A stretch of DNA of 64,000 nucleotides from a virus: positions 87,208-151,207 of the IMG/VR virus record IMGVR_UViG_3300032308_002092; one strand, written 5' to 3'. How positions within the stretch are numbered: position 1 is the first letter of the stretch; each line of letters begins with the position of its first letter. The notes below the pieces were generated by a model. The model was not told the origin of the DNA and searched no databases. It was given only the letters and a program-made list of their open reading frames with translations. A program made the translations under genes and the position numbers. This document shows, piece after piece, positions 3,355-25,041 of this stretch.

Positions 3355-3403
3355 GTGAAACCTCCGATAATAGCTATACTATTATACCACCGACACTGCC
3401 TCG

Positions 3404-8027: not shown

Positions 8028-8041
8028 CGTAGCAGTGTCAG
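8028..8041 (+). repeat. CGTAGCAGTGTCAG box, copy 1 of 5
   Basis: Same 14-mer at 16045, 17705 (1 mismatch), 18999, 20258, all in the same orientation. Confidence 0.85.
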
Positions 8042-8045
8042 GTGT

Positions 8046-8105
8046 AGACTCGTCAGTCGCGTATACAACGCGAGACCAAGAGCGTGGCTACTCTTGGTTT
8101 CGTCT
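8046..8105 (-). ncRNA. Type II hammerhead ribozyme HH1 (3' of gene 8106-8612)
   Basis: Minus strand AGAC-GAAA-CCAAGAG(TAGCCACG)CTCTTGG-TC|TCGCGT(TGTAT)ACGCGA-CTGACGA-GTCT: full core, three perfect stems, GUC site; cleavage 8074/8073. Confidence 0.93.
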
Positions 8106-8612
8106 TTAGCCAACCAAAGCCCTAAGGTGCTCTGGGATTGAGGAGAGGTCGAGTTGCTTTGCTTTGTTTTGGCGAGGGGTCTTAGCTGGCTTGCTAGCTA
8201 CCATCTCAGCCCTAACATTAGCAATGAAGTTTTTCACTTCAACGATCTTAGTTTCTTCTGCGCCTGAAGCAATAAGATTCTTGAGTACCTCAGTTGCTTG
8301 CTTGATCTGTGGGTTAGTACGGCTACCAGGGTTTTTAGCTTCATACTTGCCGCCGCCGTTGATCTGAGGTGCCTTATTGAACCAGTTAGCTACGACGCTA
8401 GAAGCGTAAGACCTGAGTGCTTTGTCGTCATCTAGCTTACCAGCCGAGCGCTGTGCCAAGACGACTTCGCCAGAAATGAAGCCTTCAAGCATAAGGCTAA
8501 CGATCTCACGACGTTGCTCTTCAGTTACGTACGAAGAAATGGGGGCACTACTATTAAAACTAGAACCAAGGACCTGCTTAGTATACGTTACGACCGCTTC
8601 ATTTTGTTTCAT
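8106..8612 (-). CDS. Ribozyme-flanked family protein, paralogue A
   Basis: ATG 8612 with SD AGGAG; shares NWxxKxPxxNGGxKxxxKNPGSR and C-terminal xSxxPEHLxxLVG with 16919-17365 and 20305-20754. Confidence 0.85.
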   Translation of the reverse strand: MKQNEAVVTYTKQVLGSSFNSSAPISSYVTEEQRREIVSLMLEGFISGEVVLAQRSAGKLDDDKALRSYASSVVANWFNKAPQINGGGKYEAKNPGSRTNPQIKQATEVLKNLIASGAEETKIVEVKNFIANVRAEMVASKPAKTPRQNKAKQLDLSSIPEHLRALVG

Positions 8613-8636
8613 GGTAAAACTCCTATATAGAAACAT

Positions 8637-8693
8637 TGACTCATCAGTGCTGGAACCTACCAGCAGATACCCTTGGTATCGGGTATTTCGTCA
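8637..8693 (-). ncRNA. Type II hammerhead ribozyme HH2 (5' of gene 8106-8612)
   Basis: TGAC-GAAA-TACCC(GATACCAA)GGGTA-TC|TGCTGG(TAGGTT)CCAGCA-CTGATGA-GTCA; AUC site; cleavage 8666/8665. Confidence 0.93.
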
Positions 8694-8909
8694 TTAGTCT
8701 ATTGCTGCGTAGTCATCTGGGAAGAAGGTTTCTTCTTCCATCTGACGGCTATTGAAGTCTAGCTGCTCATACACATCGTCTTCATAGTCGGACAAATAGA
8801 TATAATCTTGGTTGATTTGCACCGTGTTCACGACCATACCATCGGGCATAACCACGGTTGAATTAGGATCTTGTTGCGAAAGAATCTTAATGAGTTCTGA
8901 AACCAGCAT
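8694..8909 (-). CDS. Small acidic hypothetical protein
   Basis: MLVSELIKILSQQDPN start, SD AAGGAGG. Confidence 0.7.
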   Translation of the reverse strand: MLVSELIKILSQQDPNSTVVMPDGMVVNTVQINQDYIYLSDYEDDVYEQLDFNSRQMEEETFFPDDYAAID

Positions 8910-8950
8910 ATCAAACCTCCTTTATTTACTTGTGCATATTGATTCGGGAA

Positions 8951-9355
8951 TCATGACCTGAGTGTTAGTCTAGTTCCATCTGGCATCGTCGTATAGCTTA
9001 CGTCGGATGGTAAGGCACTGGTCACTCTAGTGAAGGTTTCTAGTTGCTTGCCTTTACCATCGAACGATCGCGCGCAGCCTGTGCCATCACACAAGATGAA
9101 TGAGTCTTGGTTGTAAGTCTGAGCCATGCTCTTCATCAAGTCAAACAACGACCAGCCTATGGTGTTAGGCGAACCACTTACAAGCCAAACATTCTCCATC
9201 TGATCTTTGTAAGATCCTCTGACGTACGTAGTTTTAAACCCATTCATCCTAATGAAGAAGCCTAGCTGCTCATGATCCTGCATATTTCTAATGTCGTCTT
9301 TGTCGCTTTTGTCTGCGGAGATCAGAGCGAAGATAGTATCTAAATCTAGTTTCAT
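8951..9355 (-). CDS. Hypothetical phage protein
   Basis: ALISAD..GSYK..AQTYNQDSFI pattern (DUF3293-like, tentative). Confidence 0.6.
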   Translation of the reverse strand: MKLDLDTIFALISADKSDKDDIRNMQDHEQLGFFIRMNGFKTTYVRGSYKDQMENVWLVSGSPNTIGWSLFDLMKSMAQTYNQDSFILCDGTGCARSFDGKGKQLETFTRVTSALPSDVSYTTMPDGTRLTLRS

Positions 9356-9718
9356 GTTAACCCCACTTTCGTTTGTTTGCTAAAACACAAAGTACACCAA
9401 AGAATAAAGATATTAAGAACTTGAAAAAAGCATACTCAAGATTGCCGTTAATCAAATCAAACCATCCAAATACCTGTAGGAAGATACTTACGATAAACAG
9501 CGCGATGGCTAAGTTCACTTGCCTCTCCTTACGATCAGGAGGATCGCGGTAATTATTTTCTTAAAAAAGTCAATCATCTTTCTCTCCTTCTTTTTCTGGG
9601 TGAAATTTATCGAGCACCTTAGCGAAGATCATCAGCAGCAGTACTGTTACTGCGAGCCCACCGATTATTGATATCGGTATCGCGACTCCAATAGCTATAA
9701 CGTAAAGCAATATACTCA

Positions 9719-9925
9719 TTAGCTAACTTCCTCGCTTTCCTCGTAGATGTACCAGTCATTGGGCTTAAGACTAGCTGTCTTCTGCTCATACTCGTGTTTG
9801 CCGTATGAATACGCGAAGGCTCTGCCGTTCCAAACTATGAACGGAGCTGGGTGATCTTTGTGTGAGATCTTAGCTCCCTTGAGGGCCTCAATCAATGCTT
9901 CTTCTAGAGTCATGATCAGCTCCAA
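9719..9925 (-). CDS. Hypothetical protein
   Basis: MTLEEALIEALKGAKI...NDWYIY, a common phage small-protein pattern. Confidence 0.55.
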   Translation of the reverse strand: MELIMTLEEALIEALKGAKISHKDHPAPFIVWNGRAFAYSYGKHEYEQKTASLKPNDWYIYEESEEVS

Positions 9926-10060
9926 TCGTTAGGGTCTTTGTTTTTGCCCTTGACTTCTTCGTAGAAGATAATACAAAGCAATCCCACCATGAAGATGCCA
10001 CCAAAGAAACCCGCTATAGAAATTGCAGCCATGAATCCTGTTAATGCTGAGTCCACGATA

Positions 10061-10411
10061 TTACTCTCCTAGTATTTGTTGCTCTATTTGTTGCGTCATA
10101 TATTTGTCTAACGTGAACTGAATAACATGGTTGTGAACATCTTTTACCTTTAGATAAACCGAATGAGGTGTTAGATCGCCTCTTGAATTCAGATAGCAGT
10201 TCGCTACTAGCTTAAAGGAATAAGGGGTTTTTGGATGTTTTATGGTCTTAGATACTGTGGTGTACGACTTACCTTTTCGCTTAGCACACTCTTTAACAGC
10301 ATAATGGTAGTGAGAGATAAGGGCGTCTAGGGTAAATTCGCTGCCTTCTACTGGACCCAGGCTTAGGTCTATGATTGTTCTATGCTCTCCAGTAACCGTA
10401 AATAAACACAT
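10061..10411 (-). CDS. Hypothetical protein
   Basis: ORF downstream of a CCGAAAC motif. Confidence 0.6.
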   Translation of the reverse strand: MCLFTVTGEHRTIIDLSLGPVEGSEFTLDALISHYHYAVKECAKRKGKSYTTVSKTIKHPKTPYSFKLVANCYLNSRGDLTPHSVYLKVKDVHNHVIQFTLDKYMTQQIEQQILGE

Positions 10412-10459
10412 GTTGCTAACCCCTACTCGTTATCGTTGAATAGTATTGGTTTCGGATAC

Positions 10460-10696
10460 TCACTTAAGGTCTTGTGTCTCTGAGTAGAGAAGGTGTGACA
10501 TAGAGTCCATCACCACAAGAGTACTCTGCTTGCCATACTTAGACACCATGTCTGCCTTGAGGGAGCGAAACTCAGCTCTACACTTCTCTCGCTCTGCGAC
10601 TTCTCTGAAGTATTGTCTACCCTCGGCGGCCTCGTAGTAAGAGAGATCAGCTATGGATACTATAAATTTTTTGATTAGCTCGCAATTGTAGTTCAT
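10460..10696 (-). CDS. Hypothetical protein
   Basis: ATG 10696 with SD GGAGG. Confidence 0.65.
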   Translation of the reverse strand: MNYNCELIKKFIVSIADLSYYEAAEGRQYFREVAEREKCRAEFRSLKADMVSKYGKQSTLVVMDSMSHLLYSETQDLK

Positions 10697-10725
10697 GCAA
10701 CCTCCAATAAGATATTGGATCGGGA

Positions 10726-10956
10726 TCACCTATCGGATGGGTTGCCGTGGCCGTTATCGCATAAGTCTTCTCCACAGCCAGCGCCACCGCCACACCCATC
10801 ACCATAACCGTTGCCATCGCCATAGCCATCACCACTAGGGCTGCAATTACTTAAACCACAGCCATAACCATCGCCGCTTTTCTTAATATAGTTGTCACCA
10901 TTGGGTCTACCGTAATGGTAACCGTAGCTAAAACCATCTATTTCTAGAGATTCCAC
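10726..10956 (-). CDS. Gly/Asp/Tyr-rich IDG..PSD family micro-protein 1
   Basis: SLEIDG start, GYG/GDG repeats, PSDR end. Confidence 0.75.
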   Translation of the reverse strand: MESLEIDGFSYGYHYGRPNGDNYIKKSGDGYGCGLSNCSPSGDGYGDGNGYGDGCGGGAGCGEDLCDNGHGNPSDR

Positions 10957-10962
10957 GATAGC

Positions 10963-11181
10963 TCACCAATCAGATGGGTAGTGATCGAACCGATCTTCGG
11001 TGCCACTACCGCAACCATCACCATACTCATCGCTATGTCCATCACCTCTGCCATAACCGTCGCCGTCAGCAGTGCCACCACTTAAACCCCAACCATCACC
11101 ATCGCTGTAAGTATGACTATCGCCGTTGGCCATGCCGTAACGATCGCCGTAACCAAAAGCATCTATTTTTAGAGATTTCAT
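10963..11181 (-). CDS. IDG..PSD family micro-protein 2
   Basis: SLKIDA start, GDG repeats, PSDW end. Confidence 0.75.
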   Translation of the reverse strand: MKSLKIDAFGYGDRYGMANGDSHTYSDGDGWGLSGGTADGDGYGRGDGHSDEYGDGCGSGTEDRFDHYPSDW

Positions 11182-11201
11182 GGTTTATTCTCAGTCTGAG
11201 A

Positions 11202-11537
11202 TTAAAGCCACTTATTCAAGTCAGCTTTCATCACAAAGATATCCTTACCGAAGATCGTACCAGCTTCGTTTAGCACAGTCTCAGCCTGAGGACCTTCGAC
11301 GCACAGCTGGCCGAGACCCTTGGTCGTACCCCATCGGTGGATGTTGTAGGCGTTGTCAAGCCTGATTCTCTCGCTGGAGAGGCGAGTAACGAAGCCGATG
11401 AATACCCAACCGCGATCCATGACTGCGATGACTAGATCGCCGTTCTCATAGTCAAGCTTAGGCTGAGGTGCGCCTCGCAAAGACTCCTCAACCTGACTGT
11501 TGATTACATAATTACCGAATAACTTACTCTTAGCCAT
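11202..11537 (-). CDS. Conserved phage protein, possible Sm/SH3-like beta-barrel
   Basis: VIAVMDRGWVFIG...LDNAYNIHRWGTTKGLGQL; SD AAGGAGG. Confidence 0.7.
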   Translation of the reverse strand: MAKSKLFGNYVINSQVEESLRGAPQPKLDYENGDLVIAVMDRGWVFIGFVTRLSSERIRLDNAYNIHRWGTTKGLGQLCVEGPQAETVLNEAGTIFGKDIFVMKADLNKWL

Positions 11538-11674
11538 AATAAACCTCCTTTGTTTCTGTCTATATTTATATCGGAAATGATACTCTGTGGACCGTTACAA
11601 TCCTCTTTCGCTGTTATACATCAGAAATACAATCGCAACAGTGAAACCAAGTATAAGTAGCGCAAATACACTCA

Positions 11675-11890
11675 TTAAGAAATCTCGCTTGCTTCTACGT
11701 ATTGGCTGAAGATTTCTGGGTATCTTTGTACGTAACCGTTGTCTTCTAGGAAGTAGTACAGAGCTACACCAGGTGGTACTTCGTCATCGAAGTTGCTCCG
11801 CCAAGCGTAGTCTTCGAAGTCACTCGTAGTTAATCCCGTGACCTTAACACACAGCTTATCTACTTTGTTCATGTAAGACTTGAAAGACAT
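11675..11890 (-). CDS. Hypothetical protein
   Basis: ORF downstream of a CCGAAAC motif. Confidence 0.65.
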   Translation of the reverse strand: MSFKSYMNKVDKLCVKVTGLTTSDFEDYAWRSNFDDEVPPGVALYYFLEDNGYVQRYPEIFSQYVEASEIS

Positions 11891-11948
11891 ACAAACCCCT
11901 TATTGAAGACACCCCATCGTTGGGATATATAATCTGGTTTCGGGATTC

Positions 11949-12143
11949 TCACCAGTCTGATAGATCATCGTAGCCATAACAGTCACCGTAGCTCTCTCCA
12001 TCACCATTTCCATAGCCGTATCCGCTACCACTACCGTCGTATTCTGTAATGATGATGATATTAGGGCCTTCAGAGCCGCTGTCGCCGTCACCGTTATAGT
12101 GGCCGTCACCACAACCCCAGCCATCTATTTCTAGCTTGTCCAT
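11949..12143 (-). CDS. IDG..PSD family micro-protein 3
   Basis: MDKLEIDG...LSDW. Confidence 0.75.
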   Translation of the reverse strand: MDKLEIDGWGCGDGHYNGDGDSGSEGPNIIIITEYDGSGSGYGYGNGDGESYGDCYGYDDLSDW

Positions 12144-12149
12144 TGCTCT

Positions 12150-12389
12150 TCACTTATCTGACGGGCCGTGATGGCCCTTGCCACTGCCATCTCCAACAAC
12201 GAGATCTTGCCCCAGACAATTTAGATCATAACCATAGCCATCGCCATTAGGGAGGCTGTCTCCGTAGCCACAGCCATACCTCTCTCCATCGTAGCCATAA
12301 CCATAGTTCCCATGGACACCACTGCCATCGCCGCAGAAGTAACCGTGAAAGCGTCCATAACCTAAGCCGTCTATGTCTAGCTTGTCCAT
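12150..12389 (-). CDS. IDG..PSD family micro-protein 4
   Basis: MDKLDIDG...PSDK. Confidence 0.75.
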   Translation of the reverse strand: MDKLDIDGLGYGRFHGYFCGDGSGVHGNYGYGYDGERYGCGYGDSLPNGDGYGYDLNCLGQDLVVGDGSGKGHHGPSDK

Positions 12390-12392
12390 GGT

Positions 12393-12689
12393 TTATGCTT
12401 TACGCTTCTTCTTTTGGCCGTCTTTGATGGCCTGAACCTCTGCTTGGTCAAGCGGGACACCGTGGCGGTACCAGCTATCACCCCACACCGCGCCGTCTTC
12501 CCAGTAGGTTATAGCAGGGCTACCCTCACGATGTAACCTACCTTGGCAATACCAATACTCGGTGTCTACCTTGCCGTCTTCGCTATAGTAGACAATGGCA
12601 GGGCCATCCACACGATGTGGAACACCCTCCTCCAGGTATCGCTCGGACTCTACCTTACCGTTTTCGTAGTGTTTCTTAACGCACTCCAT
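12393..12689 (-). CDS. MORN-variant (HRxDGPA) repeat protein
   Basis: YENGKV..HRVDGPAI, EDGKV..LHREGSPAI repeats. Confidence 0.8.
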   Translation of the reverse strand: MECVKKHYENGKVESERYLEEGVPHRVDGPAIVYYSEDGKVDTEYWYCQGRLHREGSPAITYWEDGAVWGDSWYRHGVPLDQAEVQAIKDGQKKKRKA

Positions 12690-12701
12690 AAATCTCCTTG
12701 A

Positions 12702-12941
12702 TTACCAATCTGAAGGCATGTCATGATCATCACCTGAACCCCAGCCGTTGCCGTGGTTGTAGGACGTATCACCATAGCCAACACCATCGCGATAAATTGG
12801 GTGATAGCCACGACCATGGAGATCACTGCCACCATTGCCCCAGCCATCCCCACTCGCCATGGAGTATTCACCTTCTCCCTCGCCGTTACCATCCCACCAA
12901 CAGTCTGGTGAGCCGTCGCCATCTATGTCTAGCTTTTCCAT
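12702..12941 (-). CDS. IDG..PSD family micro-protein 5
   Basis: MEKLDIDG...MPSDW. Confidence 0.75.
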   Translation of the reverse strand: MEKLDIDGDGSPDCWWDGNGEGEGEYSMASGDGWGNGGSDLHGRGYHPIYRDGVGYGDTSYNHGNGWGSGDDHDMPSDW

Positions 12942-12948
12942 AAGTTAG

Positions 12949-13215
12949 TTACCAATCTGAGGGTTCTAAATCTTCCCCATCACCAGCACCATCTCCACCG
13001 GTGTCGCCACCAGAACCGTCGCAATAACCATCACCGCCGAGGGTGGTATAACCGCTGCCTCTTCCGTCGCCGGTTCCAGTGCCGCAGTCGCCGTCGCCAT
13101 AGCGATCGTCTGGTATAGAGGGGCTATAGCAACCTATACCGCCGTCCCCATTAGGGGACGTTCTGTCTACACCACAACCAAATCCATCCACAGCGAGCTT
13201 GCTTTCTAATATCAC
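12949..13215 (-). CDS. IDG..PSD family micro-protein 6
   Basis: KLAVDG...EPSDW. Confidence 0.75.
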   Translation of the reverse strand: MILESKLAVDGFGCGVDRTSPNGDGGIGCYSPSIPDDRYGDGDCGTGTGDGRGSGYTTLGGDGYCDGSGGDTGGDGAGDGEDLEPSDW

Positions 13216-13227
13216 TTAATATGTCCT

Positions 13228-13461
13228 CTACCAGTCAGAAGGGTCACCCTCAGGCTGTATCTCATGGAATTGGATGAATGTCATAGAATCGGATTTTGTG
13301 AGTTCGTGTTCGCCGTAGCCATAGCCGTCACCATTTGGTTTGGTTCTGCCTATGAAGCTATCTGGCGTTTTTACGCCCTCTCCAAAGCCGTCGCCATGTA
13401 TCCTACCGTATTGACCATAGCCGTAGCCAACTCCGTCTACGATCGTCTCGCCTATCTTCAT
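13228..13461 (-). CDS. IDG..PSD family micro-protein 7
   Basis: TIVDGVGYG...DPSDW. Confidence 0.75.
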   Translation of the reverse strand: MKIGETIVDGVGYGYGQYGRIHGDGFGEGVKTPDSFIGRTKPNGDGYGYGEHELTKSDSMTFIQFHEIQPEGDPSDW

Positions 13462-13927
13462 GGGTCCTCATATCCATTAAAGCTGCCCGCCAAGAAAAGC
13501 CGCCCGCCAAGAACGCTATTGAGCTTAACGTAGTTAAACTCTTCTTTTGAGGTTCGCTTAAGTGTTTCAAGCATAAATAGCTTCTTGGCTTCCTCTGATT
13601 CCATCACTTTGATACCATCTACCCAGATGCTGCATTCCGGACTACATATCTCTTCATACCCAGCCTTATATCCAGCAGCGGACACCTCTTCTAAAGTGAG
13701 AGGCTGGTCTTTGATGGCCTCATACATTTCTCGCACCTGTTCATACGACACTTCTGTTTTGCGATGAGGACCCCCAGTTTGTTGAGAGCCGTTCTCACTA
13801 CCTCCTTGACCATTATGGGAAACCATTAGGCCCATCACTATAAACGCCGCCGCCGCACCCATTACTTACCCTCCTCTTTCTTACACAACACCTATCTTCA
13901 TAGGTCCTCATATCCATTAAAGCTGCC
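13451..13927. repeat. 37-bp direct repeats (13451-13487, 13891-13927) flanking one gene
   Basis: CCTATCTTCAT[G/A]GGTCCTCATATCCATTAAAGCTGCC, 1 mismatch. Confidence 0.9.
13458..13862 (-). CDS. Hypothetical protein between direct repeats
   Basis: SD GAGGAGG; hydrophobic N-terminus. Confidence 0.6.
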   Translation of the reverse strand: MGAAAAFIVMGLMVSHNGQGGSENGSQQTGGPHRKTEVSYEQVREMYEAIKDQPLTLEEVSAAGYKAGYEEICSPECSIWVDGIKVMESEEAKKLFMLETLKRTSKEEFNYVKLNSVLGGRLFLAGSFNGYEDP

Positions 13928-14198
13928 ACCATTTACGTGGGGTGCGTGGGACACTTGCATGAGGATGCGGCTTTTCTATCTCAAGGTGCCGAATGGCTAC
14001 AACATCAAATAGCTCTATCCCATTCGTGTTGCGACCCTCTTTATCAACGTAAACACAGGAAGCAACCCCCGGAGCAAACAGCACCATTAAATAAAACGCC
14101 GGTGACCAATCAGCGCGTTCGTTGAATTCAACAAACGAACCCACTAGTCCGTTTCTAAGTGTGATCTCGTCCCAAGCCTTTAGTTTTGTAATATCCAT
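13917..14198 (-). CDS. Hypothetical protein
   Basis: SD AAGGAGG. Confidence 0.65.
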   Translation of the reverse strand: MDITKLKAWDEITLRNGLVGSFVEFNERADWSPAFYLMVLFAPGVASCVYVDKEGRNTNGIELFDVVAIRHLEIEKPHPHASVPRTPRKWWQL

Positions 14199-14238
14199 AA
14201 TGGCCTCCTTTTTATAGTAATTTTAATACACTAATCAT

Positions 14239-14548
14239 TCCCAAACTTCAATCTCACCAGTCAGCTCAACTACCTGAACCGGCTCACCTTAGGTATCTCA
14301 AATACAGAAACATCCTCGTCCCTTAGATTTTCAGTCTTGCCTATGGGAATTCTTATCTCATACAAAACCCCATCGCTACCTGTCACGCGAGTGTATCCAC
14401 GTTCTTTCAAGCTTGAGAGCTGCTCCCTCGTGAGGTCCTCAAAGATTTCTATGGGCACAGGTCCTTTGTCTGTCAAGAACCCTTCTTCAATTAACCGGTC
14501 AATTACTTTAGACATATTACAAACTACTCCCAAACTTCAATCTCACCA
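14239..14548. repeat. 21-bp direct repeats (14239-14259, 14528-14548) flanking one gene
   Basis: TCCCAAACTTCAATCTCACCA, exact. Confidence 0.85.
14270..14515 (-). CDS. Hypothetical protein
   Basis: ATG 14515 (MSKVID) with GGAG upstream. Confidence 0.55.
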   Translation of the reverse strand: MSKVIDRLIEEGFLTDKGPVPIEIFEDLTREQLSSLKERGYTRVTGSDGVLYEIRIPIGKTENLRDEDVSVFEIPKVSRFR

Positions 14549-14757
14549 CTCCGAAGGGGTCTCCCTTAGTATCCCTGTCTCTTGTACCTGCAAAATGGGC
14601 ACCGAACAACAGTCTAACATTACCTTGAGAACCGAAGTCCTCATCAAAGACTGGCAGGCTTCGTCCCATGCCTCACACTCCAACTACATACAGAACGAAG
14701 ATCCCTATCAGGATGGCAGCCCAAACCCCAATTAGTATCTCCATAGTCCCTATCCCC

Positions 14758-14952
14758 TTAAAGCAGGCTCAGTATGAAGCCTAGCACCACCAAGAACACC
14801 CAAAGCACCACAGAGTACAAAACAACAGTCAAGTACCATAGCCACAAAGCGGTCATCCCGACTATCTCTCTGAAGCCGGGGATAGACATCAAACCGCATA
14901 CTGCAGCTATAGCCAACACCAGTACGACCACCCTTGCCAGTAAGCGCCGCAT
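14758..14952 (-). CDS. Small membrane protein
   Basis: Two hydrophobic segments; SD GGAGG. Confidence 0.6.
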   Translation of the reverse strand: MRRLLARVVVLVLAIAAVCGLMSIPGFREIVGMTALWLWYLTVVLYSVVLWVFLVVLGFILSLL

Positions 14953-15023
14953 AACCCCTCCCCATATCGTGATTCATATACCTTCGGAATATAACTCAAG
15001 GGTCTGATGCCCACTTCCCACCC

Positions 15024-15233
15024 CTACTTAAACTTACAGCTCAAACCAGCTTTATTCAGGCCGTTATATCTATAGCAAATCACTTCGCTATTCTCTAGTC
15101 TGTACACACCAAAACCAACCGCCTTAGCTTCGCTAAAGCCATACTCACCGTCAACACCTCCATCAACGTTAGGCTCAGATACCCTAAAAGTACATCCGCT
15201 CAATACAATCAATCCAACCACTAGCACCTTCAT
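15024..15233 (-). CDS. Small lipoprotein
   Basis: MKVLVVGLIVLSGC lipobox; SD GGAGG. Confidence 0.7.
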   Translation of the reverse strand: MKVLVVGLIVLSGCTFRVSEPNVDGGVDGEYGFSEAKAVGFGVYRLENSEVICYRYNGLNKAGLSCKFK

Positions 15234-15289
15234 AAACCCCTCCCCACAATTACCCTACAACTATCCATTATCAATTCGGAATCCCATAC

Positions 15290-16250
15290 CTTACCTTCCC
15301 CAAACCCTGGGTGGAAGATATAGTAACCGCCGTAACTAACTTATAAACCCCTAAAATAACCTCTTATAACAACCTATACCCACCTATACCCAGTTATAAC
15401 TACCTACTAATCCCTATACCCTCAAATACCCTAATCCCCTACGTAACTACTACTATTAGATACACTTAAGTGCCAAAACCTACCGTAACTAACACGTACG
15501 TATCACCTTAACCCCATACCATTCCCAACCAACCACCTATACCAGTTAGTAGCACGAAAGGGATAGGGAGTGGACTGGTAGAGTTATAGTGATAATGATC
15601 CTCACCATTACTATAGGAAAGACATAAAAACTATAGTGATTTAACTAGCCTAGGGCGAGCCTATAGGCAGGTTGTTTCCGCCCACAACTATCCCTACTCT
15701 CGCAACAACATCTCTCACTTGTGGCCACGCCGCGGTAACCTATAGGGTTACAAATCACCACGGTTTTGCCCACCTATAGGTTTACAGGTCGGGTATCCTG
15801 CTCCCTCCTACCCTATCCCTACAGATACCTCCCGGGTGGTTTGCGTGTTGTCCTAGGGGTAAATCGGGTGTCGAGGAAATCATTAGGCTTTTTGGTAGTT
15901 GGGTTGGGAATGGTGCTTTCCCCTAGGGGTAAAATGAGATAGGTGGGTGGCTTTGTTGATATTGCTAGAGATTTTAGTTTCGGGATGATAGGAGTGAGAG
16001 AAGTCCTAGGGAGTTTTGCTCGTTTTAGGGCTTCGGGTGTGGGGCGTAGCAGTGTCAGGTGGTTTGGTGGGGTTGTTGGGCTACGGGGTGGGATAATGAT
16101 ATCAGTGAGTTACGGGTGTTTTGGTGGCGCGAGTTGGTGCGCTTAGGGCTGGGGGTTTATATACACTTTTATTTTGTGGTCTTGAGTTGTAGTTGGGAGA
16201 GTAGGATAAGTAGGGTGCGAATTCAAGTTGTTTGGGGGTGGCTATGATAA
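15290..16250. other. Mirror-symmetric non-coding region; candidate replication origin or terminus/packaging region
   Basis: C-rich left arm, G-rich right arm, iterated ACCTATACC and CCGTAACTAAC, central CCTATAGG/CCTAGG palindromes, 13-bp inverted repeat 15518-15530/15902-15914. Confidence 0.55.
16045..16058 (+). repeat. CGTAGCAGTGTCAG box, copy 2
   Basis: Exact 14-mer. Confidence 0.85.
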
Positions 16251-16263
16251 GCCCGTAGCCCAA

Positions 16264-16506
16264 TCAGACTATATACTCTTCGTCTAGTGGCTCATCGTAT
16301 AGGTGAGCTATGGAGTGCCATGGTCCTGGGACTGTGAAGAGGTCTAAGTTGCCAGAGCGTATAGCGTGAGCCTTAGCCATAGCTTCGTCCATGTCAGAGT
16401 GAGAGGAAACTACCCACGTCACTAGGTTGTGGACTTCGGAATCCACCTTCACGATAGTGTCGAAAGTAGAGTGGTCGTACATCACGAAGTACCTAATAGG
16501 TTGCAT
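16264..16506 (-). CDS. Hypothetical protein
   Basis: SD TAAGGAG. Confidence 0.6.
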   Translation of the reverse strand: MQPIRYFVMYDHSTFDTIVKVDSEVHNLVTWVVSSHSDMDEAMAKAHAIRSGNLDLFTVPGPWHSIAHLYDEPLDEEYIV

Positions 16507-16589
16507 AACATAGTCTCCTTACTTAATGGACAAGTTAATGAAGATGAGAGTCATTATCAACAAGAATATAGCCGCTGTGCCTGGATCCA

Positions 16590-16805
16590 TCACTCTGTCT
16601 CTTCCACGGTTATGGTGTAGGACTTGTCGTACTGGTCCTTCACTATGATGGTGCGCTTAGGTGACCTAAAGCTACCGTCTTCGTTTAAGTCCATCTTTAT
16701 CTCTACGTTCCTGAGCTTTATCTCAGTCGCCTTAGGTATGGCCGCAGTGATCACATGAGTGATATAGTCGCAGTATGCTAATCTCAACCCGCTTGACTTA
16801 AACAT
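16590..16805 (-). CDS. Hypothetical phage protein
   Basis: SD TAAGGAGG. Confidence 0.7.
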   Translation of the reverse strand: MFKSSGLRLAYCDYITHVITAAIPKATEIKLRNVEIKMDLNEDGSFRSPKRTIIVKDQYDKSYTITVEETE

Positions 16806-16843
16806 AGTCGTTCCTCCTTATATAGGGGATGGTATCGGAAACC

Positions 16844-16906
16844 GGACTCATCAGCATGGCTATCAGCCATGGACCTAGGATCTCGAGCGAGTCCTAGGTT
16901 TCGTCC
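16844..16906 (-). ncRNA. Type II hammerhead ribozyme HH3 (3' of gene 16919-17365)
   Basis: GGAC-GAAA-CCTAGGA(CTCGCTCGAGA)TCCTAGG-TC|CATGGC(TGATA)GCCATG-CTGATGA-GTCC; cleavage 16872/16871. Confidence 0.93.
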
Positions 16907-16918
16907 TCGGTTACGGAC

Positions 16919-17365
16919 TTATCCCACCAGGGATCTCAAGTGCTCGGGTAGTGCGGAGAGGTCCACAGTCTTGGCAGCAGACTTAGGCTGTGGGCGGTTA
17001 GCTTCAATGAACGCTTCGAGCTCAGCTGTAACTTCAGATCCCTTAGCGATCAGAGCCGCTTTGAGAGCTAGAGCTTGCTTGAACTCTGGGCTACCAGATC
17101 GGCTACCAGGGTTCTTGACTTCGTGCTTGACCCCACCGTTGAGGGCAGGTGACTTACGGAGCCAGTTGCTGAGCAGACCTGAAGCGTAGCTTCGCGCCTT
17201 AGCTTCGCTGTACTCCTTGCTCAAGCTGATCTCTCCGTTCATGAGTCCCGCTACGAGCATACCGATTGCTTCCTTGCGTTGCTCACTAGTTAGGGTGACT
17301 GCTTCCGCAGTTACTCCAACGATTGACTGTACGATCTCTACGACTGCCTTTGATTGTGACTTCAT
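16919..17365 (-). CDS. Ribozyme-flanked family protein, paralogue B
   Basis: ATG 17365 with SD TAAGGAG; NWLRKSPALNGGVKHEVKNPGSRSG..LPEHLRSLVG. Confidence 0.85.
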   Translation of the reverse strand: MKSQSKAVVEIVQSIVGVTAEAVTLTSEQRKEAIGMLVAGLMNGEISLSKEYSEAKARSYASGLLSNWLRKSPALNGGVKHEVKNPGSRSGSPEFKQALALKAALIAKGSEVTAELEAFIEANRPQPKSAAKTVDLSALPEHLRSLVG

Positions 17366-17383
17366 ATGTAACACTCCTTAATT

Positions 17384-17440
17384 AGACTCATCAGTGCCAG
17401 AACCTACTGGCAGATACCCTTGCTATCGGGTATTTCGTCT
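17384..17440 (-). ncRNA. Type II hammerhead ribozyme HH4 (5' of gene 16919-17365)
   Basis: AGAC-GAAA-TACCC(GATAGCAA)GGGTA-TC|TGCCAG(TAGGTT)CTGGCA-CTGATGA-GTCT; cleavage 17413/17412. Confidence 0.94.
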
Positions 17441-17444
17441 TAAG

Positions 17445-17594
17445 TTACCGACAGTAGTGATCGGCGTAGTTGCAGTAGAAGTCATAGACTTCGTCGTCAG
17501 TCCACGAGTCACAAGAGTAGTCTACGTCATCGTTTCCCGCTGCGATCATCTGAGCGAGGATGATGTTCACCGTAGTGCGAAGCGAACCTCTCAT
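17445..17594 (-). CDS. 49-aa hypothetical protein
   Basis: Not in track; MRGSLRTTVN...YADHYCR with SD AAGGAG. Confidence 0.5.
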   Translation of the reverse strand: MRGSLRTTVNIILAQMIAAGNDDVDYSCDSWTDDEVYDFYCNYADHYCR

Positions 17595-17704
17595 ATGAAG
17601 CACTCCTTGGTTAATCAACCTTGGTTGGTTGATAGTTATATATGGTATCGGGAAACTGGGGCTGCATCGGATCGTGGGGCCGAGGTGTGGGTTCGGGTGC
17701 TGGG

Positions 17705-17718
17705 CGTAGCAGTGTCGG
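17705..17718 (+). repeat. CGTAGCAGTGTC box, copy 3
   Basis: CGTAGCAGTGTCGG. Confidence 0.8.
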
Positions 17719-17741
17719 GCTTCACGCAGACACCCTCGGTA

Positions 17742-17924
17742 TCACTCCAGACCCTTGCAGGAGCTAGCGTCGTTGCTCTCGTTGGCCTGACAAGCCACGT
17801 ACTTCTCGCTGCTTTCCTTGGAGTTAGCCACCGAGATCTCACCTACTACGTTGATGGAGGTGTTGACTACAACTCCGCCCACGATAGCGTACACACAGTA
17901 CAAGACCACTAGTTCGATGCCCAT
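17742..17924 (-). CDS. Small membrane protein
   Basis: Hydrophobic N-terminus. Confidence 0.5.
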   Translation of the reverse strand: MGIELVVLYCVYAIVGGVVVNTSINVVGEISVANSKESSEKYVACQANESNDASSCKGLE

Positions 17925-18016
17925 TATAATGCCCCTTATAAACCTTAAAGCCCACTTAAACTGCCATTCTAATAGCTAGAATGGTATTCTAAAATCTAGT
18001 ATGTTATACTTTGCCC

Positions 18017-18334
18017 TTACCCCGGCAAGTTCTGCTTGTAGTACAAGTCACCCCAGTCGATGTAGAAGTCCTCGACCTTAGCGTGATCCCAAGCGTCGGA
18101 CCACAGCTTGATATCCTCGTAGCTATCCATGCTCATCTCCCTGCCAGTCACCAACTTAAAGGCATCGTTCATGAACATATTAGCGTCTACGTAGTCATGC
18201 GAAGCGCACTCATGCTTATGGTTGTGCTTGTTAGCTTCGCATATATCAACCATAGTGGCTAGACCAAGCTCAGCCATCAGTAACTCGGAGAACTTTTCTG
18301 CTATCTGTTCGTGTAGCTCTACTTCGAAATCCAT
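18017..18334 (-). CDS. Hypothetical phage protein
   Basis: CASHDYVDANM motif. Confidence 0.7.
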   Translation of the reverse strand: MDFEVELHEQIAEKFSELLMAELGLATMVDICEANKHNHKHECASHDYVDANMFMNDAFKLVTGREMSMDSYEDIKLWSDAWDHAKVEDFYIDWGDLYYKQNLPG

Positions 18335-18489
18335 CGTTCACCCCGGTAAGTTGTCTAGTATAAAGTTAAGCTCTTCTACTACTTCGTCGGAAACAGGTTG
18401 ATCTAGTGCCTCATCAGGTACATCTGGGTAGTATTCCAGCTTGAATTCGTCCCAAGCGAACTGCATTAACTGTCTAAGCGTAAGTTCGT

Positions 18490-18699
18490 TCATTGTCCAC
18501 CTCTTTCTTCTAAGGCTTGATACACTCGCTTCAGTAGCTCTGTGGGTTCGGTATAGAAATCATCCTTATCTAACTGCACCATATCCAGGTTTATCAGCGC
18601 CTGACTGAACCTCATATCGGGATAGGTCCTCAAGTAGGTCTCTAGTATCCGTAGTAGCTCCAAGTTAGCATGTAGTCGGACGCTCGTTGGTTGACTCAT
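18490..18699 (-). CDS. Hypothetical phage protein
   Basis: YPDMRFSQAL..DFYTEP pattern; SD AGGAGG. Confidence 0.7.
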   Translation of the reverse strand: MSQPTSVRLHANLELLRILETYLRTYPDMRFSQALINLDMVQLDKDDFYTEPTELLKRVYQALEERGGQ

Positions 18700-18998
18700 A
18701 ATAACCTCCTAGTTACATATAGATATAGATTCGGATACGACTATCAGAACCACTCACCCTTTCTTACAATCACCACTCTACTCGCTGTATTGACTATCAT
18801 CGCTCTTCTCCTTCTGCCATCGGAGAAGTATCTCATAGCCTCTTGTAAAGCAGAGAATGAGTGTATAGTCATGAAAGACCGTGCATCAGTTGAGCCGTGC
18901 CAAACCTGAACTTGATACATAATAAACTCCAATGTGTAAGAGAACTTTGTTATTCTCTTATTAATAATATATAGTTACGGGAATTAAATTCCCCTGGG

Positions 18999-19012
18999 CG
19001 TAGCAGTGTCAG
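18999..19012 (+). repeat. CGTAGCAGTGTCAG box, copy 4
   Basis: Exact 14-mer. Confidence 0.85.
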
Positions 19013-19047
19013 ATAGTGGTATAATACCCTTAGGTTAAGGAGAACAC

Positions 19048-19524
19048 ATGGAAAAGCTAATCAAGCATAGCAACGGGCAGTGGACACTAGTTAAGGCCAA
19101 GGACACTAGTAAGCACGGCAACTTCGGTGGTGGTAACTCCTTTGACGGAGGAGACCAGTATGTCCCCTCTAAAGAGGGTATTGCAGCAAACGCGGCTAGA
19201 GCAGCGGAGCAGAAACGCCTAGAAGCAGAAGCGAGCGCAGTATCGGCTGCACACAAAGATGTAGCCGACAGAGGCGAAGTTCGCCGACGCACCGAGCCGC
19301 CGAAAACCGTAGAAGATCACCCACTACACGGCGAGTTAGTTAATCACTTCAAGAACAAGCATGGGTTGGACCATCACGCTGCGTTTGCTGCGGCTACTCA
19401 TGTCATGACTTCGGGCCTCGGCGAAAAGACTCATGAAAGTGACTCAGATAAAGCAGCTACTGGTTCTGGAGCAGCCGAGGCCAAGAAGATCCTGGCTGGT
19501 AAGGTTAAGACCAAGATCTCTTAG
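19048..19524 (+). CDS. Hypothetical protein, possible internal virion protein
   Basis: Only well-supported plus-strand gene in the early region; GGTATAAT at 19018-19025 and SD TAAGGAG. Confidence 0.75.
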   Translation: MEKLIKHSNGQWTLVKAKDTSKHGNFGGGNSFDGGDQYVPSKEGIAANAARAAEQKRLEAEASAVSAAHKDVADRGEVRRRTEPPKTVEDHPLHGELVNHFKNKHGLDHHAAFAAATHVMTSGLGEKTHESDSDKAATGSGAAEAKKILAGKVKTKIS

Positions 19525-19529
19525 TCGTC

Positions 19530-19796
19530 TTATATAAGACCTTGTTCACTCAGTTGCTTCATCAGTGAATCATCATTCTTAGACCCAAAGACTCTCACTA
19601 CATCCTCATAATCACATAGTTCATCGGGGTCGTCGTGACATACGAACGCTAGTCCTTCGACTGTCTTCCACACTGAGAACTCATATATGCAGTGAACTCC
19701 TGTCTCTACGTAACCATCAGGTTCAGTGATTGAGCCATCGAACATCTTCCCCGCTTCTAACTCTGCAACAAGTTGATCGACTGTGAACTTACTCAT
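19530..19796 (-). CDS. Acidic hypothetical protein (tandem paralogue 1)
   Basis: TGVHxIYxFxVWxTxEGLxFxCxxDPDE shared with 19873-20139. Confidence 0.8.
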   Translation of the reverse strand: MSKFTVDQLVAELEAGKMFDGSITEPDGYVETGVHCIYEFSVWKTVEGLAFVCHDDPDELCDYEDVVRVFGSKNDDSLMKQLSEQGLI

Positions 19797-19813
19797 AGTG
19801 ACTCCTTAAAGTT

Positions 19814-19873
19814 AGACTCATCAGTGTGACTCTTAGTCACAGACTATCTTCGTTTCGGAAGATAGTTTCGTCT
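19814..19873 (-). ncRNA. Type II hammerhead ribozyme HH5
   Basis: AGAC-GAAA-CTATCTTC(CGAAAC)GAAGATAG-TC|TGTGAC(TAAGA)GTCACA-CTGATGA-GTCT; cleavage 19842/19841. Confidence 0.94.
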
Positions 19874-20139
19874 TATGCGAGACCTACTGCACTCAGCTGC
19901 TGATCAAGAGTGTCGTCTTCCTTATCCTCCTCGAAGAACCGCTTGACATCGTCGTAAGTTAGTATCTCATCGGGGTCTTCAGTGCATATGAACCTCAAAC
20001 CTTCGTCAGTGTCCCACACCTCGAAGTCGTATATGGAGTGAACACCGGTGCTCACGCCTCCGTGTGACAGGAACTCACCTGCAGTTAGTCTACCATCGGC
20101 GATCGCTTCTTCTAACTCTCTGACTGTGATCTTACTCAT
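19873..20139 (-). CDS. Acidic hypothetical protein (tandem paralogue 2)
   Basis: Paralogue of 19530-19796; SD GAGGAG. Confidence 0.8.
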   Translation of the reverse strand: MSKITVRELEEAIADGRLTAGEFLSHGGVSTGVHSIYDFEVWDTDEGLRFICTEDPDEILTYDDVKRFFEEDKEDDTLDQQLSAVGLA

Positions 20140-20257
20140 GACTTCTCCTCATGTTGTTCACACATTAATAGAATCGGAAAACACACTAATAAATATTTAA
20201 GTTTTTCAACTCATTTATTTATTAATAATATATAGTTTCGGAAACTATATCCCTGGG

Positions 20258-20271
20258 CGTAGCAGTGTCAG
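20258..20271 (+). repeat. CGTAGCAGTGTCAG box, copy 5
   Basis: Exact 14-mer, adjacent to GC hairpin 20273-20297. Confidence 0.85.
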
Positions 20272-20304
20272 TGGGTACGGGCACCACGCCCGCACCCAAC
20301 TCAC

Positions 20305-20754
20305 TTAGCCAACCAACTTCTGGAGGTGCTCGGGAAGCGCTGAGATATCCACGGTCTTCTCGGTCTTCACCGGAGCGTTGGCTGCGATGAACATCAGGAG
20401 CCCAGTAGGAATCTCCTTGCCTTGCTCAGCCAAGTACTTCTTAAGCGCGATCGCTTGCTTGTACTCATTGCTCCCACTTCGTGAGCCTGGGTTCTTAGCT
20501 ACGTACTTCACTCCGCCATTCAACTCGGGCGACTTACGTACCCAGTTGTCCAGCAGTCCCACCGAGTAACTCCTCATCTTCTCGGGAGTGTCGTGCTTAG
20601 CCCGAGCACCCGCGCTCATATCAATCTCACCATCAACCAAGCCTTGTGTGATCAGAGTCAAGCACTCTTCTTTCTGCTCCTTGGTCAACTTAACTCCGGG
20701 AGTAAATCCCTCGATCCCACTCACGATCGCTACGACTGCATCTACTTGCTTCAT
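20305..20754 (-). CDS. Ribozyme-flanked family protein, paralogue C
   Basis: NWVRKSPELNGGVKYVAKNPGSRSG..LPEHLQKLVG; SD TAAGGAG. Confidence 0.85.
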   Translation of the reverse strand: MKQVDAVVAIVSGIEGFTPGVKLTKEQKEECLTLITQGLVDGEIDMSAGARAKHDTPEKMRSYSVGLLDNWVRKSPELNGGVKYVAKNPGSRSGSNEYKQAIALKKYLAEQGKEIPTGLLMFIAANAPVKTEKTVDISALPEHLQKLVG

Positions 20755-20772
20755 GTAACACTCCTTAAAGTT

Positions 20773-20829
20773 AGACTCATCAGTGCAACCACTTAGTTGC
20801 AGATACCCTTGCTATCGGGTATTTCGTCC
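20773..20829 (-). ncRNA. Type II hammerhead ribozyme HH6 (5' of gene 20305-20754)
   Basis: GGAC-GAAA-TACCC(GATAGCAA)GGGTA-TC|TGCAAC(TAAGTG)GTTGCA-CTGATGA-GTCT; cleavage 20802/20801. Confidence 0.93.
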
Positions 20830-21173
20830 TCACTTCTTCTTGAACACTAGTTCCTTAATCACATCGGATACAGTCAGAACTGCGAATCCCCCGACTAGAA
20901 CAACCATCAACATCCACGAGAGTTGCCAGAGATAGATCAGGTAAATCAATTCCATCGGATCCTCCTTGTAGAGATAGTTAGAATCGGGGAGGTTATTCTC
21001 ACCCGTTTCCTTCAGTAAGGGGAGGTAATATCGGGAAGTATACCCGCTAGCCTCTGCTTACAGGGAACCCCTTGTTTCGGAAGTACCGATGAGGGTGCCT
21101 AAACACTCTCTACATACTACTTTTACAACTATTGCCATAAGGGATAAACAACCATACCCACCGCCCTTACCCT

Positions 21174-22507: not shown

Positions 22508-22722
22508 CTTTGCTCAACCTCTATTAGCTTATCTATTATGGCAGATACTGCGGCCCTAGAGTAGGAGCCATCCCCGGTTCGCTTAAAACCAACCGCGTCT
22601 GCGCAGCTAGTATAAGTTCCGTCTGCCCTCTTCTTCATCTTTGCTAGAGGGCAGGTTTCACAAACCGACTGTGAAAAACTGTTGCATGAGTCCGTGTCTG
22701 CTATGATATATAAGTGTTCCAT
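22504..22722 (-). CDS. Small Cys-containing protein upstream of endolysin
   Basis: Probable start MEHLYII at 22722, 6 nt after a TATAAT. Confidence 0.55.
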   Translation of the reverse strand: MEHLYIIADTDSCNSFSQSVCETCPLAKMKKRADGTYTSCADAVGFKRTGDGSYSRAAVSAIIDKLIEVEQR

Positions 22723-22746
22723 GTTTGTATTATAACAGGAAATGAG

Positions 22747-23577: not shown

Positions 23578-25041
23578 ATGCCACAGTTCGCGTCTAAGAA
23601 GCAGTACAGGATGATGATGGCTATCATGCACGGTGGCAAGGGCAAAACATCGCGTGGCGATAGTGGTCCACCAAAATCTGTAGCTGAGAAATACTCTGGG
23701 GGCGGCAAAGATCTGACCGAGTCTAAGGGTAAAGAAGACAGGGGTGGACGATGGGACAAAGAAAAGAAGGCCAAGCACTCCGAGAAGGCTAAGTTTAAAA
23801 AAGCAGACATCAAGGGTGTTGGAGTCATCGTTCAGAACGACGAAGGTGCTATCCTTATAGGCACCAACCCCGAAAACGGCCAGAAGATGCTTCCAGGTGG
23901 CGGTGTCGACGATGGCGAGCTTCCGATGGAAGCAGCTATTAGAGAGCTATCTGAAGAGTCTGGCTTAGAGGCTCAAGAGGCCAAAGAATTAGACGCTGAC
24001 GAATATGGCGCGGTGTTTCTGGTTAGGAAGTTTTCTGGTTCACTAAAAGATACTAAAGAGATGGTTGATGCCAAGTTCGTATCCGTTAAGGATATCCCCT
24101 GGCACAAACTAAGGGAATGCTGTATCCCTGGGCTTAGCAGATTTGTGTCAGAGCAAATGAAGAAGTCTAAGAAGCTCGACGACATGCTTTATCTAGAGAA
24201 GCTAGAGAAGAATATTATTCGCTCATCTCAAGTAGCTCATGCTGTGTACGAGATGACTCATGGCGATGCCTTAAAGCTGATTGGCAATAAAACATTTCGC
24301 ATACTTCGAGATGGCATCAAGGGCATGGGCGACGATGAAGTCAAAGAGATCGAGATGGGACCATATACGATGGTCGTCAGAAAGCACGTCAACGACGTGT
24401 ACTCTGGGCACATACGCGACGGACACAAAACAATCCATAATTTTGTAAACAGATCTCTCCCTGCTCTCACAGGTGAGCTGATGAGCGTGTTCGAGTGGTA
24501 CCTACCAGAAGATATCCCAGATCTAGAGATAGAAGAAGACGACAAGCTTTCTGACGATACCCTAGATAGTGGTATCGAAAAAATGATCCACAACTATAGA
24601 AACTACAATTTAGCAGATGTCTACGATGAGATGGAGTCAATCAGGCAAGAAGTCAGGCACGGCGTTGCGGTTGACCTACAGCAGATCGAAGATAGGGTTG
24701 GCAAGCTCATAGATAAGCTCGAGTCTAAGTTGGATGACATGTCTGATAAGCACAACTCTCTAGCGCGAGAGCTTGGCTCTGACATAGACGAGTTGGAATC
24801 TAAGTTAAGGGAACTTAGAAGCAAAGTGCCCGATAAAGACGATAAGACGGTTGTCAACGCTGTTTCTCAAGAAACACCTAATGTAGGTAGGGTTCTAGAC
24901 ACGTTTTACAACTATCTGTCAAAACCAACTGTGACGATAGAACCCAATGGAAGGATTCAGATATCCTTTTCTTCAGACTGGTCAACCCTGGATCAGGGTA
25001 ATTTCTTAACCGATCTGAAGGCGAAAGTTGCTAAAAAATGA
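23578..25041 (+). CDS. Nudix-domain protein with coiled coil, probably virion-associated
   Basis: Nudix box GGVDDGELPMEAAIRELSEESGL; TATAAT and SD upstream. Confidence 0.8.
   Translation: MPQFASKKQYRMMMAIMHGGKGKTSRGDSGPPKSVAEKYSGGGKDLTESKGKEDRGGRWDKEKKAKHSEKAKFKKADIKGVGVIVQNDEGAILIGTNPENGQKMLPGGGVDDGELPMEAAIRELSEESGLEAQEAKELDADEYGAVFLVRKFSGSLKDTKEMVDAKFVSVKDIPWHKLRECCIPGLSRFVSEQMKKSKKLDDMLYLEKLEKNIIRSSQVAHAVYEMTHGDALKLIGNKTFRILRDGIKGMGDDEVKEIEMGPYTMVVRKHVNDVYSGHIRDGHKTIHNFVNRSLPALTGELMSVFEWYLPEDIPDLEIEEDDKLSDDTLDSGIEKMIHNYRNYNLADVYDEMESIRQEVRHGVAVDLQQIEDRVGKLIDKLESKLDDMSDKHNSLARELGSDIDELESKLRELRSKVPDKDDKTVVNAVSQETPNVGRVLDTFYNYLSKPTVTIEPNGRIQISFSSDWSTLDQGNFLTDLKAKVAKK

Follow-up and report, generated by a model that had tools for sequence, protein, structure and literature searches.

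A promoter-like core in register with the cut of gene-leading hammerhead ribozymes in a phage early region

Can the same few bases be read on DNA as a promoter and on RNA as part of a ribozyme? This question is raised by the early region of a phage represented by IMG/VR record IMGVR_UViG_3300032308_002092, a 151,207-bp viral contig whose final 64 kb form the stretch analysed here (the window; positions are window positions unless marked otherwise). Bases 1-22,600 hold small minus-strand genes and are followed by structural genes on the plus strand; the phage is a new myovirus, with Myxococcus phage Mx1 as the best relative of its tail sheath (27.6% identity) and no near-identical DNA record among annotated phages. 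In its early region, hammerhead ribozymes stand directly in front of genes and carry in stem III the sequence CCGAWA, which also recurs between early genes. Sequence comparison leads us to conclude that the embedded sequence and the intergenic motif are very probably one functional element, and that the embedded sequence is under selection. That it is a working promoter core, read on DNA and overlaid on a working ribozyme that is read on RNA, is a tentative reading to which we give somewhat less than an even chance.

A core pattern scan with a stem check, run over the whole 151,207-bp genome, detected six type II hammerheads (HH1 to HH6), all on the minus strand within 8046-20829 and none elsewhere:

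8105-8046, minus strand: HH1, predicted cut 8074/8073; stem III without the core; a 12-nucleotide (nt) GACACTGCTACG box follows at 8039-8028
8693-8637, minus strand: HH2, predicted cut 8666/8665; leads a 168-aa gene at 8106-8612; Rfam score 26.1 bits
16906-16844, minus strand: HH3, predicted cut 16872/16871; stem III without the core
17440-17384, minus strand: HH4, predicted cut 17413/17412; leads a 148-aa paralogue at 16919-17365; Rfam score 29.4 bits
19873-19814, minus strand: HH5, predicted cut 19842/19841; leads an 88-aa gene at 19530-19796
20829-20773, minus strand: HH6, predicted cut 20802/20801; leads a 149-aa paralogue at 20305-20754

All six contain the CUGANGA and GAAA cores, and the cleavage triplet (NUH) before the predicted cut is AUC or GUC in every case. 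For HH2, HH5, HH6 and three ribozymes of related phages, the three-way junction is the minimum-energy fold; the folded hammerheads show type II topology, with loops closing stems I and III and an open stem II, and stem I covaries among HH2, HH4 and HH6. The Rfam model Hammerhead_II (RF02276) recognises HH4 and HH2 below its gathering score of 37, and HH1, HH3, HH5 and HH6 gave no Rfam match even at E up to 10. Rfam detected no other ribozyme class at E up to 10, and nothing at gathering thresholds. The stem II helices of the window hammerheads are short (3-4 bp) and their stem III loops are unusual. HH2, HH4, HH5 and HH6 each take up the space from a stop codon to the next Shine-Dalgarno sequence (SD), their 3' ends lying 17-24 nt upstream of the ATG codons at 8612, 17365, 19796 and 20754, respectively. 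HH1 and HH3 directly follow a stop codon, with the next start 69 nt and 38 nt away. As a control set, we used 123 distinct stem III sequences of type II hammerheads from 119 unrelated viral contigs (IMG/VR loci L131-L249). An SD and a start codon lie within 45 nt downstream of 98/123 of these, so gene-leading placement is the norm and the window ribozymes are ordinary in themselves; 79/123 have a stem III loop of 4 nt.

The initial annotation had placed the core in the gene-leading ribozymes only, and for the window both the scan and the sequence confirm this: HH2, HH4, HH5 and HH6 carry it, and no CCGAW was found in stem III of HH1 or HH3. The embedded sequence reads CCCGATAC at 8683-8676 (HH2), CCCGATAG at 17430-17423 and 20819-20812 (HH4 and HH6) and TCCGAAAC at 19859-19852 (HH5), spanning the top of the stem III 5' arm and the start of the loop in all four. 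HH2, HH4 and HH6 are paralogous copies that lead paralogous genes; the window therefore holds two independent cases, not four. The products of these genes are only 37-44% identical and the stem I helices differ by compensatory changes, while only one base changes across stem III and its loop. This near-invariance of stem III, next to a covarying stem I and diverging genes, argues for selection on its primary sequence, beyond pairing.

But what is the core a copy of? Motif discovery by expectation-maximisation on the regions upstream of minus-strand genes, with the hammerheads masked, returned a single block: (A/T)T, YCCGAW, three loose bases, a near-invariant A and a TA-rich run. The string T[CT]CCGA[AT]A occurs 15 times in the genome, 13 times intergenically and in minus orientation. 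A position weight matrix (PWM) built after masking of the hammerheads gives 28 intergenic sites a score of at least 11.5 bits, and all 28 are in gene orientation. The motif core lies 31-57 nt upstream of start codons, and about half of the early intergenic regions carry the motif. Across 35 aligned sites, no information content was found upstream of the block that would mark a -35 element. Canonical sigma-70-like sites are rarer in the early region than in shuffles of it (7 vs 19.7 +/- 4.6), and in the early regions of six related phages (public assemblies) YCCGAW occurs 90 times in sense and 9 times in antisense orientation, with 28 expected per strand. The intergenic motif is most likely a promoter class that consists of a -10 element only, to judge from this pattern of placement and orientation. 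Three of its sites bear on the ribozymes or on the boxes near them:

16823..16844, minus strand: full motif copy just after HH3, 15.8 bits, 33 nt before the ATG at 16805, and within 6 nt of the ribozyme (16838); predicted start ~16824
17636..17657, minus strand: bona fide intergenic site, 19.9 bits, with 11 nt in common with the HH2 copy; predicted start ~17637
20226..20247, minus strand: best-scoring intergenic site, 21.3 bits, with a GACACTGCTACG box upstream at 20269; predicted start ~20227

A 5'-terminal hairpin analogous to stem I is not enriched after the intergenic sites (mean -6.7 vs -8.5 kcal/mol in controls). We also considered an upstream box combined with a sigma-70 -10 hexamer and rejected this arrangement in favour of the sigma-28-like numbering described below, since position -7 has no conserved T and the shortest leaders would have to start inside the SD.

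The embedded copies match the 5' half of this motif, HH2, HH4 and HH6 with 10.7 bits (top 1.2e-4 of genome positions) and HH5 with 7.7 bits, and they keep its invariant A. The likeness to the motif upstream of early genes, which the initial annotation had pointed out, thus holds, and it lies above chance: 7 of the 16 distinct stem III types in the phage clade carry CCGAW, compared with 4/123 controls (2/123 for YCCGAW; Fisher p = 4e-6, calculated with the first 88 controls). In five of the seven motif-bearing types, the first C of the core lies 17 nt from the cut, and in the other two 16 and 14 nt; unlike this distance, that from the 5' side of stem III varies from 5 to 13. When placement was simulated at random, a register this constant had p = 2e-4 for the seven types and p = 0.012 for four lineages.

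How far stem III can change around the core is seen in an orthologue of HH2 in a related phage (L258:771-835), which shares its flanking sequences on both sides and its stem I with HH2 and has a gene product 51% identical. Its stem III is 8 nt longer than that of HH2 and otherwise unrelated in sequence; the core stands in the same alignment column, and a TA-rich run follows it. Orthologues of HH6 and HH5 in L255 and L256 have the same stem III and stem I, and an HH5-type stem III in L257 keeps both arms and is changed in the loop only at degenerate motif positions. Within both groups, HH2/HH4/HH6 and HH5/L257, the stem III differences are confined to such positions. The core appears in further stem III contexts in L004, in L113 (at 1799) and in two ribozymes of L259. 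These ribozymes show a core held in constant register with the cut while stem III was rebuilt around it. The exact stem III pattern had no match in viral contigs, and none of 24 relatives at 38-54% NUDIX identity has a hammerhead.

The proposed tie to gene-leading ribozymes proved one-sided in this wider set. All seven motif-bearing types lead a gene, as the initial annotation would have it, but so do four of the nine motif-free types (p = 0.03). Three of these four appear to have a copy of the motif 25-34 nt upstream; those in L113 (at 2608 and 822) pass the score threshold, and the one in L002 (at 9930) is weaker and was recognised by eye. The trailing HH3 and its counterpart in L002 (at 12636) have a motif copy just downstream.

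Which factor could read such a motif? The sigma-28 promoter consensus is TAAAGTTT-N11-GCCGATAA (PMC2859248), and its -10 box is numbered (-15)GCCGATAA(-8), with the A at -11 flipped out and position -7 not conserved (PMC12784957). The phage motif core is the CCGATA centre of this box, including the A at -11, and because it has no conserved T at -7 it fits the sigma-28 (FliA/WhiG) pattern better than the sigma-70 hexamer. Unlike sigma-28 promoters, the phage motif has no -35 TAAA in the 35 aligned sites (expected about 11-15 nt upstream), its base before CCGA is C or T and not the G at -15, and it adds an invariant A at -6 and a TA-rich run. A candidate factor is encoded outside the window:

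genome 38984-39649 (L001:1402-2067): sigma-like open reading frame (ORF), 221 aa, with a predicted sigma region-2 fold closest to FliA/WhiG

Its product matches FliA_WhiG (E 2e-5), Sigma70_r2 (E 7e-4) and a PHROG sigma factor, all under the curated cut-offs. It has 11 homologues in metagenomes, and a profile of its 12 homologues has FliA as top match in the PDB (E 0.015). In the structural model, the N-terminal 100 residues reach a predicted local distance difference test (pLDDT) score of 85-93 and the remainder is disordered. Foldseek pairs the model almost exclusively with sigma region-2 domains (probability 0.9-1.0 for all but one match listed; root-mean-square deviation 2.1-2.5 A for the best matches). 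No region 4 was detected, so the candidate, unlike sigma-28, consists of region 2 only. The small T4 protein gp55 is likewise a sigma region-2 protein without region 4, and it reads -10-only late promoters with the help of co-activators, which it needs. The two systems are alike in organisation, pairing a region-2-only phage protein with a single-block promoter that has no -35 element, but they differ in box sequence, in the dependence of gp55 on co-activators and in the genes served, which here are small and lie in the early region. By this analogy, we infer that the sigma-like protein may read the intergenic motif. The protein bears no similarity to the sigma gene product of a distant relative (L006), and a second region-2-only sigma suspected at genome 59955-60365 was dismissed, finding no support from Pfam or PHROGs. 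A search for a phage RNA polymerase gave no PF00940 match, but control genomes gave none either; a scan of ten large ORFs was also negative (0/10).

If the intergenic motif is a promoter, as we infer, and the embedded copies are active as well, the layout would give one gene two kinds of messenger. Host RNA polymerase carrying the region-2-only, FliA/sigma-28-like phage protein would recognise the -10-only motif. With the core 17 nt upstream of the scissile bond and initiation 11 nt after the flipped A, transcription would start 3 nt before the cut. Counting the A of CCGA as -11, the four embedded cores give:

8677..8683, minus strand: HH2 core CCCGATA; A at 8679 is -11; predicted start ~8668, cut 8666/8665
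17424..17430, minus strand: HH4 core CCCGATA; predicted start ~17415, cut 17413/17412
19853..19859, minus strand: HH5 core TCCGAAA; predicted start ~19844, cut 19842/19841
20813..20819, minus strand: HH6 core CCCGATA; predicted start ~20804, cut 20802/20801

The initial annotation had expected a start a few nucleotides before the cut, and the starts obtained from sigma-28 numbering, 3 nt before it, lie inside the ranges it had given for each ribozyme. Transcripts reading through from the upstream gene would cleave themselves and leave a 5'-OH mRNA that begins with the stem I hairpin. Such read-through is to be expected, since no intrinsic terminator-like site was found on the minus strand between the upstream genes and the gene-leading ribozymes. 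A transcript initiated inside the ribozyme would contain neither the GAAA core nor the 5' arm of stem III, and only one strand of stem II; it would consequently not cleave, and would yield a 5'-triphosphate mRNA that exceeds the cleaved one by only 3 nt and shares its hairpin, SD and gene. The gene could then be expressed both by read-through and independently, possibly at different times of infection or with different fates of the mRNA. It is plausible, if a little short of an even prospect, that the embedded copies fire as promoters. In the fullest version of this reading, a 57-60-bp element would be read twice and the box would be kept by selection at 17 nt from the cut, so that both routes give the same hairpin-capped mRNA; this is possible but leans towards doubtful.

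Several observations weigh against active embedded promoters. The independent lineages number about four and all belong to one phage clade. The window's embedded copies are without the TA-rich run found at every intergenic site and consequently score only -1.7 to 4.2 bits on the full PWM, compared with at least 11.5 bits at the intergenic sites. For the initial proposal of a -10 element this cuts both ways: the core agrees with the sigma-28 -10 consensus, but the stretch that should follow it is missing in the window. Moreover, positions -4 and -3 in sigma-28 numbering are G in HH2, HH4 and HH6, a base found there at no intergenic site, and a G-rich stretch between box and start should hinder melting. 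The best embedded copies of the relatives reach only 6.7-9.6 bits on the PWM of the window phage, and those of the window are the weakest of the embedded set. As for the factor, the sigma-like match is weak by sequence, far under the family cut-offs, and the gene sits among structural genes with nothing that links it to the motif.

Could the core instead act in RNA, as an unpaired or loop element whose distance from the cut is fixed? It would then lie 17 nt from the 2',3'-cyclic-phosphate end of the cleaved upstream mRNA, inside the terminal hairpin. Its binder could be a phage or host protein, such as a 3'-end protector, a ligase or repair factor, or a regulator of cleavage or translation, and would also bind the 5' leaders that contain intergenic copies. 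We regard such an RNA-level signal as rather unlikely, although two of the features that count against promoter activity are natural to it: a function in RNA could be served just as well by a constant distance to the cut, and the TA-rich part that is missing from the window copies is what DNA melting would favour. In stem III, the core always tops the 5' arm or falls in the loop or a bulge, and is hence at least partly unpaired, and the stem III loops of 6-18 nt, compared with 4 nt in 79/123 controls, suggest that the loop holds extra information. A hairpin like the stem III loop of HH2, HH4 and HH6 (three C, a 7-nt loop starting with GAW, three G) is predicted upstream of the HH6 unit, in a block that is conserved among four phages, but the predicted pairs of this block show no covariation. 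The core is outside any hairpin in most intergenic copies, and sequence downstream of the intergenic copies is no different from controls in folding energy. Four bases past the core, the conserved A is looped in some hammerheads and paired, in the 3' arm, in others, which is how a linear motif behaves. If the intergenic sites are promoters, the core would not even be part of their transcripts. Finally, no candidate RNA-binding protein was found, the family of ribozyme-led proteins being all-helical with no PDB match.

A promoter core overlaid on the ribozyme must also be set against a relic or silent overlap, in which stem III was built from a promoter or drifted over one and the core is kept merely as stem, its C run pairing with a G run. 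Ribozymes and promoters crowd the short gene junctions here, and with the motif in about half of the early intergenic regions a ribozyme junction is likely to have one; in relatives the motif may precede the ribozyme (L113 at 2608 and 822), be embedded in it or follow it (L002 at 12636, as with HH3 in the window). The window copies are incomplete, and C-rich tops of the 5' arm are common in type II hammerheads ('CC' in 21/88). A relic, however, would neither hold its distance to the cut across stem III lengths of 19 to 28 nt nor outlast the full arm replacement seen between HH2 and L258:771. The core is found in only 2-3% of controls, and the differences within HH2/HH4/HH6 and HH5/L257 spare every fixed position of the motif. 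Taken together, we consider a relic unlikely. A sigma-dependent pause, in which the -10-like box would stall a sigma-bearing polymerase just after stem III and give time for folding or for coupling of cleavage and translation, is very improbable: it draws on the analogy with the -10-like pause elements known in lambdoid late operons and is compatible with a fixed register to downstream sequence, but nothing indicates that the factor stays with the polymerase during elongation, it is not obvious that the intergenic copies lie in transcripts in need of a pause, and sequence data cannot separate a pause from a promoter.

How does the arrangement compare with known uses of hammerheads? In synthetic insulators of the RiboJ type, a hammerhead is placed between promoter and ribosome-binding site. 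As in these, the window ribozymes lie directly upstream of the SD, and their predicted cleavage would leave a defined 5'-OH and a leader that begins with a hairpin; L113 even has, at 2608 and 822, the natural order of promoter-like box, ribozyme and gene. In the window, by contrast, the ribozyme itself contains the box, and any transcripts initiated from it would skip cleavage. Type II hammerheads have been described in polycistronic transcripts of phages and prophages, in clusters that flank genes (Perreault et al. 2011, PMC3088659; Rfam RF02276). The window ribozymes resemble them in catalytic core, type II topology, sense-strand intergenic placement and the flanking of single genes by several ribozymes. 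They differ in that stem III holds, with fixed spacing to the cut, a lineage-specific motif that is also present at about 30 intergenic sites, and in that their stem III loops are longer than the common 4 nt. A promoter-like box inside a ribozyme and in register with its cut is not described in PMC3088659 or PMC3185496. The nearest precedent found comes from peach latent mosaic viroid, in which one short motif holds both the initiation sites and the hammerhead cleavage triplet (Delgado et al. 2005, reviewed in PMC3185496). As proposed here for the phage, initiation in the viroid takes place within a few nucleotides of the cut and both routes give the same end; however, the viroid is a replicating circular RNA copied from an RNA template by a plastid polymerase, and the present case involves a DNA phage, a bacterial polymerase and an mRNA leader.

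If initiation and cleavage indeed meet at the same place, phage hammerheads, which are common, would gain a concrete purpose: an mRNA 5' end that is independent of where transcription began, with its chemistry switched. The chemistry of the 5' end governs both decay, through 5'-end-dependent RNases and pyrophosphohydrolases, and ligation of the RtcB type. It would also be a rare natural instance in which the same bases serve both a DNA signal and a catalytic RNA fold. Irrespective of what the embedded copies do, a new candidate class of phage promoter is defined by the motif together with the region-2-only sigma-like protein, and the promoter-in-ribozyme layout is a design idea for synthetic insulators.

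The three ribozyme-led paralogues (8106-8612, 16919-17365 and 20305-20754, minus strand) belong to a family that counts at least 674 metagenomic proteins, about 150 aa long and marked by conserved motifs. The model of this family is all-helical and confident (pLDDT 90), and no match was found in Pfam, PHROG or, by Foldseek, the PDB. Outside the close clade the family is not flanked by ribozymes; among its homologues in IMG/VR, a hammerhead lies nearby at 1/78 loci. Adjoining the early region is a gene for a 487-aa NUDIX-domain protein (23578-25041, plus strand), which is kept in all relatives fetched, including those without hammerheads, and which would bear on the idea of switched 5' chemistry if it were active on RNA 5' ends.

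Two further intergenic elements recur in the ribozyme region:

8028-8039, 16045-16056, 17705-17716, 18999-19010 and 20258-20269, minus strand: intergenic copies of the GACACTGCTACG box
21010-21135, minus strand (also L002:9690-9800, L113:530-640 and L004:9500-9610): conserved block with two CCGAW cores and a predicted hairpin

The five copies of the 12-nt box are in gene orientation, usually just 3' of a G+C-rich hairpin or of a ribozyme (HH1), and tend to precede a CCGAW core by 21-30 nt. The box is kept in all related phages, inverted in some (L256, L259); it contains TGACA, and the sigma-70 scan calls a -35 box there at 20271. The conserved block is about 100 nt long and lies upstream of a unit formed by a small ORF and HH6. 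Consensus folding predicts hairpins in it, with no covariation and no Rfam match, and a metagenome scan with the block's pattern returned unrelated coding sequence.

Within the minus-strand early block, a lone, well-scoring ORF of 158 aa on the opposite strand (19048-19524, plus strand), with no family match, separates the HH5 unit from the genes that follow. Canonical extended -10 sequences (TGnTATAAT-like) are found in intergenic positions at 22639-22746 and 3355-3403 on the minus strand; they are probably host sigma-70 promoters, which would feed read-through into the ribozyme operons.

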